DNA of 64,000 nucleotides from Candidatus Magasanikbacteria bacterium RIFCSPHIGHO2_01_FULL_33_34 (GTDB lineage: Bacteria; Patescibacteriota; Patescibacteriia; Magasanikbacterales; UBA922), in assembly GCA_001782825.1 (NCBI GenBank), contig MFPS01000008.1:137012-201011 (forward strand), written 5' to 3'. A program made the translations under genes and the position numbers. This document shows positions 3,215-64,000 of the stretch, one piece after another. The notes beneath the pieces are model-generated. The model saw nothing but the letters and a program-made list of their open reading frames with translations. It did not search any database and was not told the origin of the DNA. Position 1 is the stretch's first letter. Each line of letters begins with the position of its first letter.

Positions 3215-5290
3215 ATGAATAAAAAGTTTAAATTAAAATCAGATTATAAGCCAGCCGGTGATCAGCCCAAAGCGATTAAGTCGCTTGTTTCAGGTTTTAA
3301 GAGTGGTAAAACTAGACAAACTTTGCTTGGTGTAACTGGCTCGGGAAAGACATTTACAGTAGCCAATGTGATTGAAAAACTTCAAAAACCCACTTTGGTA
3401 ATAGCACATAATAAAACTTTGGCAGCCCAGCTTTGCAATGAATTTCGGGAATTTTTTCCAGATAATGCGGTAGAATATTTTGTCAGTTATTATGATTATT
3501 ATCAACCAGAGGCATATATGCCAGGGTCAGATACCTATATAGAAAAAGAAGCGCAAATCAATGAAGAAATAGATCGTTTGCGCCATGCTTGTACTCAAGC
3601 CTTACTTACTCGTAAGGATGTGATTGTGGTGGCTTCAGTTTCTTGTATATATAATATTGGGTCGCCAACCGAGTATGAAAAAGCAGTATTGCATTTACAA
3701 TTAGGTCAAAAATTGAATCGTGGTGGTATGCTTCAACAGTTGATTGAAATGCAATTTGAAAGAACCAATAGTGATCTCAAAAGAGGCCATTTCCGTATGC
3801 GCGGAGAAGTATTTGAATTGATGCCAGTCAATGAAGAAAAAATTTATCGTTTTGAAATTTCTGATAAAATAAACAAGATAGAAATGATTGATAATGTTAC
3901 TCGTAAAATTATCAGAGAAATAAAAGATGCTTGGATTTTTCCGGCTAAACATTATGTAGCAACTGAGGAATCCAGAAAAAAAGCTTTTGAAAGTATAAAT
4001 AAAGAATTAACTGAACGCTTGAAATATTTTCAAAAAAAAGAAAAGGTTTTGGAATATGAAAGATTGAAGCGTAAAGTAAAATATGATTTGGAAATGATAA
4101 AAAATGTTGGCTATTGTAATGGAATTGAAAATTATTCTAGTCATTTTGATGGTCGAGCTGTTGGTGAACCAGCTTTTACATTGTTAGATTTTTTTGCTCA
4201 TGCTTCCAAAGATTTTTTGACTGTGATAGATGAGTCTCATGTGACAGTATCGCAAATTGGTGGAATGTATAATGGCGACAGATCTCGCAAAAGTACCCTC
4301 ATAGAACATGGTTTTCGTTTGCCTAGCGCTTTGGACAATCGACCACTCAAGTTTGATGAATTTGATAGTAGAGTCAGGCAGACTATATATGTATCAGCCA
4401 CACCAAATCAATATGAAATCAAAGAAAGTCAACAGGTAGTAGAACAAATTGTTCGTCCGACTGGTTTGGTTGATCCAGAAATAGTAATAAGGCCAATCAC
4501 AAGTTCACACAAACATACAAACATACAAACATCTAAACATAAAAATATAAAACAACAAAGTTTGTCACAAGTTGAAGATTTAATACTTAGAATAGATGAG
4601 AGAATCAAACAAGATGAAAGAGTTTTGGTAACTACCTTGACCAAAAAGATGGCCGAGGATTTGACAGATTATTTGAAAGAAAAAAAATACCAAGTAGAGT
4701 ATTTGCATAGTGATATAAAAACTTTGGAGAGAATTCAAGTGATTAATAACTTGCGTCATGGTAAAATTGATATTATTGTGGGTGTAAATTTGTTGCGTGA
4801 AGGGCTAGATATGCCGGAAGTTTCATTGGTGGCGATATTGGACGCTGATAAAGAAGGTTTTTTGCGTAGCGAGACCAGTCTCATACAAACTATTGGTCGA
4901 GCTGCTCGCAATATCAATGGTCAAGTATTATTGTATGCGGATAATATAACTGGCTCAATCAAGCGGGCGATTGATGAAACAGAGCGTCGTCGCAAAATAC
5001 AGATAGAGTACAACAAAAAACACGGTATAACCCCGCAAACCATAAAAAAACATATCAAAAATATTTTGGAAGAATTTGGTATTGATATTAATAAAAGTAA
5101 ACAAAATAATAGGACAAAGAGGACCAAAAAAATACTTGATTTAGATCTTTCTGGAGACAAAAGACCAATTGATGAGATTATAAAAGACAAAGAGAAAAAA
5201 ATGCGAGAAGCGGCTGAAAAACTGGAATTTGAATTGGCAACCATATTGCGTGATGAAATTGTGCAATTGAGTAAGAAAATTAAGAAATAA
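3215..5290 (+). CDS. uvrB: Excinuclease ABC subunit B
   Basis: Helicase motifs (GVTGSGKTFT Walker A), UvrB-specific beta-hairpin region, C-terminal UVR coiled coil (EFELATILRDEI); 691 aa with a roughly 20-aa low-complexity insertion. Confidence 0.95.
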   Translation: MNKKFKLKSDYKPAGDQPKAIKSLVSGFKSGKTRQTLLGVTGSGKTFTVANVIEKLQKPTLVIAHNKTLAAQLCNEFREFFPDNAVEYFVSYYDYYQPEAYMPGSDTYIEKEAQINEEIDRLRHACTQALLTRKDVIVVASVSCIYNIGSPTEYEKAVLHLQLGQKLNRGGMLQQLIEMQFERTNSDLKRGHFRMRGEVFELMPVNEEKIYRFEISDKINKIEMIDNVTRKIIREIKDAWIFPAKHYVATEESRKKAFESINKELTERLKYFQKKEKVLEYERLKRKVKYDLEMIKNVGYCNGIENYSSHFDGRAVGEPAFTLLDFFAHASKDFLTVIDESHVTVSQIGGMYNGDRSRKSTLIEHGFRLPSALDNRPLKFDEFDSRVRQTIYVSATPNQYEIKESQQVVEQIVRPTGLVDPEIVIRPITSSHKHTNIQTSKHKNIKQQSLSQVEDLILRIDERIKQDERVLVTTLTKKMAEDLTDYLKEKKYQVEYLHSDIKTLERIQVINNLRHGKIDIIVGVNLLREGLDMPEVSLVAILDADKEGFLRSETSLIQTIGRAARNINGQVLLYADNITGSIKRAIDETERRRKIQIEYNKKHGITPQTIKKHIKNILEEFGIDINKSKQNNRTKRTKKILDLDLSGDKRPIDEIIKDKEKKMREAAEKLEFELATILRDEIVQLSKKIKK

Positions 5291-42611: not shown

Positions 42612-42872
42612 ATGGCAAATGAATCATCAGCCACAAAAACAAGTGGTAAAATTAGAAAAATTGTGATAGATAGAGATGCTTGTATTGGAGCAAGATCATG
42701 CGTAATAGCAGCGTCTAACACTTTTGAAATGGATGATGAAAATTTAGCTCTTGTAAAGTCTGATGCTAGTAATTTTGATAGTGATGATACTATTATGCAA
42801 GGCGCAGAGGCTTGTCCAGTATTATGTATTCATTTATATGGTGAAGATGGTAAAAAGATTTTTCCAAATTAA
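42612..42872 (+). CDS. Single-cluster ferredoxin
   Basis: CIGARSC ... CPVLCI cysteine spacing typical of mono-cluster [4Fe-4S]/[3Fe-4S] ferredoxins. Confidence 0.7.
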   Translation: MANESSATKTSGKIRKIVIDRDACIGARSCVIAASNTFEMDDENLALVKSDASNFDSDDTIMQGAEACPVLCIHLYGEDGKKIFPN

Positions 42873-42899
42873 TGAATAGCATGAATTAATTTATAAATT

Positions 42900-43049
42900 A
42901 TTCTTTAATAGAATAATTTATAATTAGAGATTATCATTCGCTCCCTGCCTGCCGGCAGGCAGGATTCTCGCTGTGGCTCCGAGGTGATTACCTGTTGTGG
43001 TAATCAAATCCGCTCATAATAATCTCTAATCATTAATTCTATTTTATAT
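42900..43049. mobile_element. MITE-like palindromic element: 11-bp flanking direct repeats, about 40-bp imperfect terminal inverted repeats, GC-rich hairpin core
   Basis: Direct repeats TTTATAAATTA at 42889-42899 and 43050-43060; TIR core ATTAGAGATTAT (42923-42934) / ATAATCTCTAAT (43019-43030); internal perfect palindrome CCTGCCTGCC|GGCAGGCAGG; local GC far above flanks. Confidence 0.4.
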
Positions 43050-43061
43050 TTATAAATTAAT

Positions 43062-43090
43062 AAAATACCACTTAGTGGTATTTTATTTTA
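43062..43090. terminator. Bidirectional terminator hairpin (AAAATACCAC-TTAG-TGGTATTTT) between convergent ferredoxin and NUDIX genes
   Basis: 9-10 bp stem flanked by A- and T-runs. Confidence 0.55.
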
Positions 43091-43502
43091 CGTATTTTCT
43101 AACACTTAGAAAATATTCAGCATCGGCTGGTATAGACAATATATCCATTACTTCATCAATAGGCACCCATTTGACCTCAGCTATATCATATTCAATTTGT
43201 TTCAATTCGTCTTCTTCAGTTTCAAATATATACATGTTTAATGTAATAAATTCATCTGGTTTATAAGAATTAGCTCTCTGATAAGTAGGGAGTTTTTTGA
43301 TAACTTCAACTTCTTTTACACCAGTCTCTTCATATACTTCACGTTTAGCTGCATCCAAAATGTTTTCATTTTCTCGAATTCCACCTTTTGGGAAGCCCCA
43401 TATATTATGATGCATTTTTACTAGCGCAATATGCCTAGTTTTTTTATTGATAAGAATTGCACCAGCATCATCTTTAAAGTTAGAAAAATCTTTATTCTCC
43501 AT
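43083..43502 (-). CDS. NUDIX hydrolase
   Basis: NUDIX box GGIRENENILDAAKREVYEETGV. Confidence 0.85.
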   Translation of the reverse strand: MENKDFSNFKDDAGAILINKKTRHIALVKMHHNIWGFPKGGIRENENILDAAKREVYEETGVKEVEVIKKLPTYQRANSYKPDEFITLNMYIFETEEDELKQIEYDIAEVKWVPIDEVMDILSIPADAEYFLSVRKYVK

Positions 43503-50625: not shown

Positions 50626-50677
50626 AGTAGGTGTTGCCAATTCACTAGTTTGGGTAAGTTTGTATTATTACTAGACT

Positions 50678-50710
50678 AAAATTATTTTTATAAAAATAAT
50701 TTTTTATTTT
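50678..50710 (+). terminator. AT-rich hairpin terminator after M23 peptidase gene
   Basis: AAAATTATTTTTA/TAAAAATAATTTT inverted repeat followed by T-run. Confidence 0.45.
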
Positions 50711-51019
50711 ATCTTGATCCTTAAAATAAATATGTGTCGCACAATTTATTAAAATATGCACAGAGCGGGCTGGGTGATATATAACGATATATAATATACT
50801 CATACATTGTGTAATAACCCTATATCAAATCATTAATTTACCTACCGACTGACAAAAAAATAATTATTCCCTAGCCATTCAAATAATGCTAGTAAACATT
50901 TATTTAAAAAGATGAACCCTAGTACCCGTATAAAATAAACAGTATATCTGTAGTGTCGCACAATTACATATAAACACACCTCGTAGCTATCTGATGGGGT
51001 AGTAAGTATTATACAAAGC

Positions 51020-51046
51020 AAAAAGCACGGCAAGCCGTGCTTTTTG
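51020..51046. terminator. Orphan terminator-like hairpin (AAAAAGCACGG-CAAG-CCGTGCTTTTT) in a long non-coding region, followed by two more stable hairpins (51046-51075, 51081-51101)
   Basis: Read from sequence; no annotated ORF ends here. Confidence 0.45.
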
Positions 51047-51356
51047 TTCGAGAGTCTAGCCGAAGCTTGACTCTCTAAGTGTAAGCGTACGAGACGCTTA
51101 CAAAAATAATTATATTATAATATATAATTTTATACAAATAATAATTGTGGATAAAATATTATTAATAATTTAATTGTGTAAATATATAGAAAATAAGTAG
51201 TATATATTTGAGCCCAAAGACTTATTATAGAGGACTTGTTCTGGTGTTGTGTATAAATCACATTGTTATACCTGTTTATATATAGTATAATCTAACTGCG
51301 TATAATGCACCTTATGTGAAGTCGTCTTATATACTTAAATTATATACACTATATAT

Positions 51357-52307
51357 ATGTCCAAACAACTACTCCCTTACCTAGATGATTACCTACTCAA
51401 TCTACAAGTGAACAATTACTCCCTTGAAACATTGTACAACTACGAACGTGATTTGATTGTCTTTCAAGATTTTTTGAGAGATGCAAAATTAGAATTCTCC
51501 AAAATTACAAAAAAAGATATTTTAAACTATAAAGCCTATTTAACTTCCACTGATAGAATGACATCTGACAAGCATGCGACCGATACTTTATTATCCCCTT
51601 ACTCGACCAATAGAATGTTGTCCGCACTCAGATCTTATCTCAAGTATATGATAGATATGGACTACCCTACCCCAATACCACCAGATGCTATCAATATGAG
51701 TAAAGTCACGAAAAATAAAGTCCAAGTACCAGAATTGGAAGAAATTATTCAGATCATAGAAGCTTCAACTAAATTTGAAAAAAACAAAAAAGTAGCTCTT
51801 CGAAATAGGGCCTTATTTGAAGTTTTGTTTGCAACTGGACTCAGGATATCTGAGCTAGTGAATTTGAGAATGGATAAAATTGATAATCAGGGACGTATTT
51901 ATGTACTAGGTAAAGGTAAAAAAGAAAGATTTGCCTATTTAACGCCACGCTCAATTAAACACTTAAAACTTTATTTAAAAGTACGCCCGTCTGATTCAGA
52001 TTTTGTATTCGTACCTTTCCAAGGAAAAAATGTAAACGATAAAAAAAATAAAAAAATATCTACTCGTTATATCCAAGAAAGAATCAAAAAATATACTGAA
52101 TTGTTAAGTATAAATGTACCGGTTACCCCGCATATTGTTAGGCATGCTTTTGCGACTTATCTGGCCGAAGATGGCGCCAATCCGGCTGCTATCCAAATAC
52201 TTTTGGGACATGAGTCACTTGATACAACTACACGCTATGTACATGCGTCCGATAGATATGCTGAAAAAACTCATCATGATTTCCATCCATTAAAAGATGA
52301 TGATTAA
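51357..52307 (+). CDS. Tyrosine site-specific recombinase, XerC/XerD family
   Basis: Catalytic residues: R in ATGLRISEL, H-x-x-R in VRHAFATYL, nucleophile Y in TTTRYVHAS; 316 aa. Confidence 0.85.
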   Translation: MSKQLLPYLDDYLLNLQVNNYSLETLYNYERDLIVFQDFLRDAKLEFSKITKKDILNYKAYLTSTDRMTSDKHATDTLLSPYSTNRMLSALRSYLKYMIDMDYPTPIPPDAINMSKVTKNKVQVPELEEIIQIIEASTKFEKNKKVALRNRALFEVLFATGLRISELVNLRMDKIDNQGRIYVLGKGKKERFAYLTPRSIKHLKLYLKVRPSDSDFVFVPFQGKNVNDKKNKKISTRYIQERIKKYTELLSINVPVTPHIVRHAFATYLAEDGANPAAIQILLGHESLDTTTRYVHASDRYAEKTHHDFHPLKDDD

Positions 52308-63537: not shown

Positions 63538-64000
63538 CTATTTATATTCGGCAATGATTATTTTCTTTTGTTGCATCATGATCTTGAATGCATCTGGCTT
63601 CTTCATGAGATCTTCTATATTGTATGGTGCGACTTGCCAGCTTACACCATATTTGTCTTTGAGCCAACCACAAACACTCTCTTGCCCACCTTCCGCCGTG
63701 AGTTTCTCCCAGTAGTAATCAATCTCTTCCTGGTCTTTACAGCTGATTGAAAGCGACACTCCCTCGTTAAAGACAAACTTGTGCGGTCCTGCGCTTTCCT
63801 GCGCGATAAATTCCCGCCCACACAGTTTAAAAAGCGCGTGCGCGATATTGCCGTCTTTTTCGCCGGGCTGGTTCTCGTAGCGGAAAATACTTTCTATCTT
63901 TGAGTCTGGAAAGACTGAAGTGTAAAACTTCATGGCTTCTTCCGCCCGACCGACATTTTCTTTGGTGAACATGAGCCCTGGGGTTATGGGTCCGGCAGGT
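63538..64000 (-). CDS. PhnB-like / 3-demethylubiquinone-9 3-methyltransferase-domain (VOC-fold) protein; reading frame open to window edge, likely 5'-partial; GC-rich relative to rest of window
   Basis: CGWLKDKYGVSWQV motif typical of PhnB-like family; upstream in-frame codons (PITPGLMF) resemble the family N-terminus (IxPYLxF); GC about 50% vs about 30% elsewhere. Confidence 0.6.
   Translation of the reverse strand, partial: PAGPITPGLMFTKENVGRAEEAMKFYTSVFPDSKIESIFRYENQPGEKDGNIAHALFKLCGREFIAQESAGPHKFVFNEGVSLSISCKDQEEIDYYWEKLTAEGGQESVCGWLKDKYGVSWQVAPYNIEDLMKKPDAFKIMMQQKKIIIAEYK

Follow-up and report, generated by a model that had tools for sequence, protein, structure and literature searches.

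The ferredoxin and NUDIX hydrolase genes of a Magasanikbacteria genome converge on a spacer of 210 nt, in a genome where most spacers measure a few tens of bases, and the greater part of this spacer is occupied by a block of nested inverted repeats. The question raised by the locus is what this block is and how it arose. An earlier note, made from the sequence alone, had proposed a miniature transposon, a REP-like element or a structured RNA. Here the window refers to the whole stretch of DNA that was analyzed, 64 kb in length. Based on the evidence summarized below, we favor with moderate confidence the reading that the block is private hairpin-rich spacer DNA which holds a solo copy of a selfish 20-bp palindromic nano-element.

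Genomic context of the hairpin block

The gene preceding the block encodes a ferredoxin of 86 aa with a single 4Fe-4S cluster (ORF at 42612-42872 on the + strand, Pfam Fer4_13/Fer4_15; stop codon at 42870-42872) and, based on operon context, is the last gene of a SUF-type Fe-S cluster operon. The ferredoxin has 100% identity to an NCBI protein assigned to Candidatus Magasanikbacteria, a CPR lineage. Downstream of it are the convergent gene of a NUDIX hydrolase of 139 aa (43083-43502 on the - strand, Pfam NUDIX; stop codon at 43083-43085) and a ClpB gene, and this synteny is kept in relatives. At the right end of the block, an inverted-repeat search and the sequence itself revealed a terminator-like hairpin, AAAATACCAC-TTA-GTGGTATTTT (43059-43087), which has T-runs on both strands and overlaps the NUDIX stop codon. 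Judged from its sequence, it is a putative bidirectional intrinsic terminator; a simple terminator scanner made no call on this hairpin. On the + strand nothing terminator-like is present from the ferredoxin stop codon to 43059, and therefore the block most likely forms part of the 3'UTR of the suf-ferredoxin operon. At the level of sequence, this supports the earlier view that the insert precedes a bidirectional terminator and belongs to the ferredoxin 3'UTR. On the - strand, the block is situated past the NUDIX terminator. Promoter signals in the spacer did not exceed those expected from shuffled sequence, and the scan revealed no conspicuous terminator signal. The spacer was letter-for-letter identical across independent JGI and ENA assemblies, and no strain polymorphism was found in it: all recovered strain copies are identical and offer no variation for covariation.

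Architecture and folding of the block

The inverted-repeat search and folds revealed that the nested inverted repeats extend over positions 42885-43061. Outermost in the block are ATTAATTTATAAAT and ATTTATAAATTAAT (42885-42898 / 43048-43061), which form a perfect inverted repeat of 14 nt and add to what had been described before. The block also has two imperfect arms of 44 nt (42894-42937 and 43016-43059) that are 70% complementary and include a perfect 12-nt inverted repeat, with the left arm ATTAGAGATTAT at 42923-42934 and the right arm ATAATCTCTAAT at 43019-43030. The terminal inverted repeats of about 40 bp with a perfect 12-bp core, as the earlier note had called them, are therefore present. 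MFE folds of both strands additionally revealed a local hairpin composed of A and T only (42891-42923), with a perfect 14-bp stem (42891-42904 / 42910-42923) and a 5-nt loop, which the previous description did not contain. Two further features proposed earlier were found as described, namely the perfect 20-bp palindrome CCTGCCTGCCGGCAGGCAGG at 42944-42963 and a second small hairpin, TGATTACC-TGTTGT-GGTAATCA, which the inverted-repeat search placed at 42985-43006. The second hairpin is private to this locus: it had zero copies in viral contigs and none in the fetched loci described below.

The 11-mer TTTATAAATTA occurs at 42890-42900 and again at 43049-43059, and these copies had been interpreted as the target-site duplication of a transposon. 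However, a perfect AT palindrome of 14 nt, TAATTTATAAATTA, can be read from the sequence at 42887-42900 and contains the left copy, so that the right copy repeats it in direct as well as in inverted orientation. The interpretation as a target-site duplication was not upheld, since the left copy belongs to this palindrome and the nearest empty site, described in the next section, does not contain TTTATAAATTA.

In Markov simulations of this AT-rich spacer, perfect inverted repeats of at least 12 nt had a p of about 0.01-0.02 each. The predicted fold of the block has a stability of -57 to -74 kcal/mol, and the folding z-score against shuffled sequences was -8.9 on the + strand and -11.2 on the - strand. 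When the 20-mer was deleted, the remaining sequence of about 140 nt still folded with a z of about -8 to -9, which indicates that the palindrome landed in, or was inherited with, a block that is hairpin-rich independently of it. In windows of 100 nt, GC content peaks at 0.44 in the block, as compared to about 0.31 for the window as a whole. The unusual composition claimed for the block is real in this sense but not unique, because values of 0.43-0.50 are also reached over 100 nt in other parts of the window.

Comparison with relatives of the same gene order

Three relatives in which the order of the ferredoxin, NUDIX and ClpB genes is kept, with ferredoxins of 84%, 79% and 76% identity, all lack the block. 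In the relative at 84% (L163) the two genes are separated by a spacer of 6 nt; the relative at 79% has 292 nt with unrelated hairpins and a 54-aa ORF; and the relative at 76% has 27 nt with a simple terminator only. At the closest empty site the sequence is ...ccaaactaaAATATTttattttacg..., and TTTATAAATTA is not present in it. Since both the block and the terminator are missing in these syntenic relatives, they are lineage-specific and a conserved RNA is excluded; and since the neighboring terminator is as lineage-specific as the block, what was gained is a block without clean transposon boundaries. The best explanation is that the block represents non-coding DNA, rich in hairpins and private to this Magasanikbacteria lineage, in which it arose. 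The comparison with orthologous regions proposed by the earlier note therefore had a divided result: the block is absent from the relatives, as a mobile element would be, but the empty site does not carry the single copy of TTTATAAATTA that was anticipated. A single-copy block conserved in position across relatives, which was said to argue for a structured RNA, is not what the relatives contain.

These data bear on two other explanations of the block. According to the first, it was selected as a cis-acting RNA, acting as a 3'UTR stabilizer or exonuclease barrier, as an insulator or extra terminator, or as a processed sRNA. REP elements stabilize upstream mRNA, and the position of the block between stop codon and terminator on the + strand, its very stable predicted structure (z about -9 to -11) and its identical sequence in every recovered strain contig are all compatible with such a role. 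However, an Rfam scan of the whole window returned no match at gathering score, a local scan at E up to 10 yielded nothing credible above noise, the promoter signal did not exceed shuffled expectation, and the lack of conservation in the relatives at 84%, 79% and 76% makes a conserved function unlikely; moreover, the GC hairpin proved to be a generic selfish unit that occurs in all contexts with no 3'-end bias. The conserved structured RNA of the earlier note was thus not borne out, and selection of the block as an RNA in this lineage is considered unlikely.

According to the second, the whole unit of about 172 bp is a MITE with terminal inverted repeats of about 40 bp, an 11-bp target-site duplication, a transposase encoded elsewhere and the 20-mer as cargo. 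Nested inverted repeats far above chance expectation, relatives of identical gene order without the block and a structure that survives removal of the 20-mer are what such an element would produce. Like MITEs, the block is short and non-coding, has inverted-repeat ends and is missing in relatives; it differs from them in having no separable target-site duplication, as the 11-mer is inside the palindromic terminus, and no second copy was found in the window or in the fetched loci. The arms are single in the 64 kb, where the 12-nt core matches no other place at up to 1 mismatch, and the left and right parts of the unit were unmatched in about 1.2-1.3 Mb of fetched loci. A gapped pattern of the terminal inverted repeats retrieved 6 unrelated matches from metagenome contigs, a result of little weight because the locus itself was also not returned. 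The lack of clean transposon boundaries next to an equally lineage-specific terminator and the nearest empty site without TTTATAAATTA also argue against a MITE, and in the window, whose ORFs were not systematically screened, no transposase with matching ends was noticed; the only mobility gene identified there is a tyrosine integrase at 51357-52307, 8 kb from the block (Pfam). A MITE of 172 bp is therefore regarded as improbable. What survives of the mobile or REP-like element proposed earlier is the 20-nt palindrome, which belongs to a dispersed family; for the unit of 172 bp, no second copy was found.

Distribution of the 20-bp palindrome

BLAST of the two halves of the element against the fetched loci (about 1.2-1.3 Mb) revealed that only the 20-mer is common to other loci. 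Its copy in the window is exact, and no other copies were found there, even at 3-4 mismatches. Outside the window, the exact 20-mer was present in at least 120 species genomes, in a collection with one genome per species, and in 35 viral contig stretches of 38-68% GC, some of which contained multiple copies; a variant with one mismatch was present in 12 further viral stretches. Two control palindromes of the same composition and repeat structure had 0 matches each. Based on record titles, the at least 120 loci include about 36 CPR genomes (Parcu-, Wolfe-, Sacchari-, Davies-, Uhr-, Doudna-, Shapiro- and Peregrinibacteria, WWE3 and others), about 38 Bacteroidota, 10 Omnitrophota, 8 Planctomycetota/PVC and smaller numbers of other groups. 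Seven of the Bacteroidota are cultured isolates, belonging to Winogradskyella, Flagellimonas, Longitalea, Flavivirga, Aquiflexum, Agriterribacter and Aestuariivivens, and the 20-mer was also present in complete chromosomes. No exact 20-mer was found in cultured phage genomes, and none of the plasmids among the matches listed carried the complete 20-mer. Among these plasmid matches, the only one of perfect identity, in a Runella plasmid, covers 17 nt and encodes the native GLPAGR motif of an aldehyde dehydrogenase; it was not accepted as a member of the family.

The flanks of the 20-mer differ from site to site and are random in composition as far as position -1, with no extension of the palindrome into them. 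Decayed, near-exact copies are common at the same loci and include nested copies and a tandem array of 10 units. Taken together, it is held with high confidence that the GC core of the block contains a member of a dispersed family of 20-bp palindromes. The fixed and synthetic-looking sequence of the palindrome across many metagenome assemblies could suggest a technical origin, such as an adapter or linker, or a GC-rich hairpin formed by chance. Both are refuted by its presence in the 7 cultured isolates and complete chromosomes, its in-frame copies within genes, its decayed variants, the control palindromes without matches and the identity of this locus in independent JGI and ENA assemblies.

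Insertion behavior of the palindrome

The mode of spread can be read from sites at which filled and empty states are both available. Interrupted and intact tRNA 5' parts were compared within the same locus (L075, L032, L144, L156, L121 and L174-L178), and the interrupted part was longer by exactly 20 bp, without any duplication. Two phage contigs have the 20-mer within the variable loop of a tRNA-Met; once it is deleted, a tRNA of 72 nt is restored. In the GatB gene of one CPR genome, the filled allele reads GATGA[CCTGCCTGCCGGCAGGCAGGTGGTT]TATACTCC, and the empty allele, in an orthologue with 95% protein identity, reads GATGA[CGGTCAAACTGTC]TATACTCC; the filled allele has a net 12 nt more and stays in frame. 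Based on these comparisons, the family spreads by insertion, a conclusion in which we have good confidence.

The 20-mer is mainly extragenic, with about 20% of its sites inside a spanning ORF as compared to 67% of random positions. In seven clearly real coding sequences that contain it (FtsK, GatB, RfbB, S6, two membrane glycosyltransferase-like proteins and one other), it was in a single frame in 7/7 cases, and this frame reads LPAGRQ. Sites are about 4-fold enriched at most 200 nt from tRNA genes (11 of 125 sites vs. 2.1% of bases). Several other regularities were sought and rejected. Flanking direct repeats of at least 6 nt are enriched, being found at 21% of the sites vs. 8% of controls, but they are not the rule and were absent at every tRNA site, so a consistent target-site duplication was not accepted. 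No enrichment in the interiors of larger helices or loops was detected. No preference among convergent, divergent and tandem spacers was observed either, and the idea of a preference for 3' ends or convergent spacers was discarded since the distribution tracks intergenic length. The copy in the window does not have the form of an intrinsic terminator: its 3' flank is ATTCTCGC, with no U-run.

GIY-YIG nuclease cassettes at tRNA genes

All-against-all clustering of the ORFs within 4 kb on either side of about 150 hairpin loci revealed a single recurrent ORF family, a GIY-YIG protein of about 80 aa (Pfam PF01541). Profile comparison placed UPF0213 proteins and the structure-specific endonuclease SLX1 closest to it among solved structures. 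At the loci selected by the hairpin, 5 GIY-YIG ORFs start 20-41 nt past the palindrome, and the components are arranged in a fixed order: a duplicated tRNA 5' part (position 1 up to 21-70) that carries the 20-mer, 13-48 nt, the ORF and an intact tRNA. The 20-mer interrupts the D-loop or the anticodon loop of the tRNA copy, and the intact tRNA has the same identity as the fragment and abuts or overlaps the stop codon of the ORF. Because there is no space for a promoter, the ORF is presumably co-transcribed from the tRNA promoter, as far as this arrangement of the sequence indicates.

The association was also tested independently of the palindrome with five family members that were picked by protein homology alone. 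Four of these, including the members from Dokdonia and a Chitinophagaceae, proved to have an exact 20-mer inside the tRNA fragment upstream; in the fifth, from Muricauda, a nested GC hairpin splits the 20-mer. Exceptions are a family member inside a 23S rRNA gene and one decayed cassette, both without the palindrome. The GIY-YIG family comprises more than 4,400 proteins at E up to 1e-8, and its named sources, Bacteroidota, Omnitrophota and WWE3, overlap the host range of the 20-mer. The 20-mer is letter-identical across phyla, while the associated nucleases are 40-55% identical. A peptide-pattern search for GIY-YIG relatives in viral contigs returned the query itself only. The 64-kb window contains no GIY-YIG ORF (HMM, E up to 0.01) and no tRNA gene, and the 20-mer in the window is therefore a solo copy.

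Possible mechanism of spread

The constant adjacency, the shared host range and the substrate preference of SLX1-type enzymes, which prefer branched or hairpin DNA, make the UPF0213/SLX1-like nuclease a candidate agent of the spread of the 20-mer. We put this forward as a tentative hypothesis, which falls somewhat short of an even chance. The nuclease would recognize or cut the palindrome or its cruciform and would drive its spread with a strong preference for DNA beside its own gene; with such a cis-preference, the dispensable tRNA fragment next to the gene would be the sequence that is hit. As alternatives to cis-preference, the palindrome could shield the donor from cleavage or block deletion between direct repeats. 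About 95% of the copies are far from any nuclease gene, and the association with the cassettes could thus reflect a preference of the palindrome itself for dispensable tRNA fragments. We know of no mechanism by which a GIY-YIG nuclease copies a 20-bp unit.

In its widest form, which is doubtful at present, the hypothesis joins the 20-mer and the UPF0213/SLX1-type nuclease of about 80 aa in a two-part mobile system that crosses phyla, with the copy in the window seeded in trans. The nuclease gene would colonize the 5' side of tRNA genes and use their promoters, and the nuclease would duplicate the 5' part of the tRNA and seed the palindrome, which may be the cruciform substrate of the enzyme, by precise insertion both in cis and in trans. 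Such a system would cross between CPR, Bacteroidota, Omnitrophota, Planctomycetota and phages.

For the preferred reading of the block as private spacer DNA with a solo nano-element, the 20-mer in the window would be either a product of nuclease activity in trans or an inherited relic. The palindrome would be transcribed in the ferredoxin 3'UTR, ahead of the terminator, and would add one stable stem-loop with a G-C-rich stem of 8-10 bp to a region that already folds strongly. The block may affect mRNA stability or termination; the palindrome at this locus is probably without selected function and is a passive passenger.

Relation to known systems and significance

The 20-mer resembles the REP/REPIN-RAYT systems in being short, GC-rich, palindromic, dispersed and mainly extragenic, in that it can be located in 3'UTRs, and in having a dedicated nuclease-type gene flanked by the repeat. 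REP sequences of Enterobacteria and Pseudomonas, however, are imperfect and species-specific, occur in hundreds of copies and are served by an HUH/Y1 (IS200-like) enzyme, whereas the 20-mer is perfect, identical across phyla, of low density (1 in 64 kb) and paired with a GIY-YIG gene. No recurrent neighbor except the GIY-YIG family, and thus no RAYT, was found near the 20-mer in about 150 loci within 4 kb on either side; RAYT genes are normally single-copy per genome and could lie outside these loci.

Very small dispersed repeats of cyanobacteria, termed nano-elements or SDRs, were reportedly described by Elhai and co-workers in 2008. Like the 20-mer, SDRs are palindromic, about 20-27 nt long and precisely inserted, including in repeats and RNA genes; they differ in sequence, and to our knowledge they are confined to cyanobacteria and come with no described nuclease cassette. 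Rickettsia palindromic elements (RPEs, 100-150 bp) and the organellar GC clusters of yeast mitochondria (30-60 bp) are likewise selfish palindromic inserts of AT-rich genomes that are tolerated in protein-coding or RNA genes, but neither of them is known to be common to several phyla. Cross-phylum identity, size, precise insertion free of duplication and the pairing with a GIY-YIG gene thus set the 20-mer apart from REP/RAYT, SDRs, RPEs and GC clusters.

On the side of the nuclease, phage T4 SegB is a free-standing GIY-YIG homing endonuclease whose gene is located in a tRNA cluster, and it resembles the cassettes in the position of a GIY-YIG gene among or beside tRNA genes and in its behavior as a selfish cassette (PMC2330249). 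SegB is larger and has a DNA-binding part, whereas the cassettes described here contain the catalytic domain of about 80 aa only, and neither a duplicated tRNA fragment nor a fixed palindrome is reported for SegB. In the literature searched, no paper was found on tRNA-flanking GIY-YIG cassettes with a fixed palindrome, and the 20-mer was found in neither DNA nor RNA spelling; coverage of this search is incomplete and an earlier description is possible.

For the locus itself these results have limited meaning: the private hairpin DNA amounts to about 200 bp in a single 3'UTR of a small CPR genome. The identity of 20 bp across at least 120 species and phage contigs, on the other hand, implies an insertion mechanism of very broad host range, of a kind not described in the literature searched, and the pairing with a nuclease at tRNA genes provides a concrete candidate for the enzyme. 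If the nuclease recognizes the palindrome, the two together would represent a compact sequence- or structure-specific DNA-cutting module. The 20-mer also marks a frequent origin of odd tRNA fragments and of the LPAGRQ inserts seen in annotated proteins.

Nuclease cassettes at tRNA genes

A recurrent gene order was found at the fetched loci (L-numbers, with coordinates within each locus). In it, the 20-mer palindrome interrupts the 5' fragment of a tRNA; next comes an ORF of about 80 aa encoding a UPF0213/SLX1-like GIY-YIG nuclease, and last a tRNA of that same identity, this time intact, which begins at or within the stop codon of the ORF. The host tRNAs are those for Arg, Leu, Met, Lys and Gly, and the cassettes are located at L174 560-1020, L175 560-1030, L176/L177 560-1020, L178 560-1030, L075 2100-2500, L144 3680-4080, L156 5750-6180 and L032 480-900. 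Versions without the ORF were also observed, in which the intact tRNA lies a few tens of bases 3' of the hairpin-interrupted 5' fragment (L121 4400-4560, L068 3610-3760, L039 2380-2480, and L042 4400-4500). These versions look consistent with loss of the nuclease gene by deletion.

GIY-YIG genes in other settings

In a Saccharibacteria MAG, a related GIY-YIG ORF lies within a 23S rRNA gene (L131 4700-5100, minus strand); it is flanked by a GAGCCGAGCCCTAC / GTAGGGCTTCGGTC stem, and the 20-mer is absent at this ORF. In a Thermodesulfobacteriota MAG, an HsdS-like gene carries an in-frame insert composed of the palindrome and a GIY-YIG domain (L098 3780-4200), positioned in the central conserved region of this type I restriction specificity gene, as identified by sequence reading and not by profile search.

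Arrays, nested copies and surroundings of the palindrome

On the viral contig L034 (3915-4125), ten 21-nt units, CCATGCCTACCGGCAGGCAGG, form a tandem array, and this unit is a variant of the palindrome with two mismatches. Nested self-insertion, with one palindrome copy placed in or close to the middle of another, was observed at L056 (~1059-1098), L080 (~456-495), L059 (~2800-2850), and L172 (~610-685), where the two halves are kept apart by the nested insert. Many copies are embedded in short tandem repeats with units of 7-8 nt (GGTGAGA, GAGTGATC, AATTACG, and GATAACA), which are followed by their reverse complements, giving long low-complexity hairpins (L001 10530-11400, L088 3330-3440, L139 1790-1870, L043 6600-6700, and L165 2380-2530).

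The record for locus L142 is titled 'uncultured Gammaproteobacteria', but the GC content of the whole locus is 31% and its GatB shares 95% identity with proteins from CPR (Shapirobacteria-like) genomes; the placeholder taxonomy given to TPA assemblies of this kind therefore cannot be relied on.

The ferredoxin-NUDIX spacer and other features of the window

In the relative L159, whose ferredoxin is 79% identical to that of the window, the equivalent spacer (3262-3553) carries two other hairpins together with a hydrophobic minus-strand ORF of 54 aa. Extra DNA seems to have landed in the ferredoxin-NUDIX spacer repeatedly.

Across the window (1-64000), no tRNA gene was detected by ARAGORN and zero Rfam families were matched at the gathering score. 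At 50626-52307, a 730-nt non-coding gap precedes a tyrosine recombinase gene of the phage-integrase family (51357-52307), and this region may mark the border of an integrated element. The GC content of a PF06983-family gene (3-demethylubiquinone-9 3-methyltransferase-like) at 63538-63972 is 47-50% versus about 31% for the window, a composition that suggests a foreign origin.
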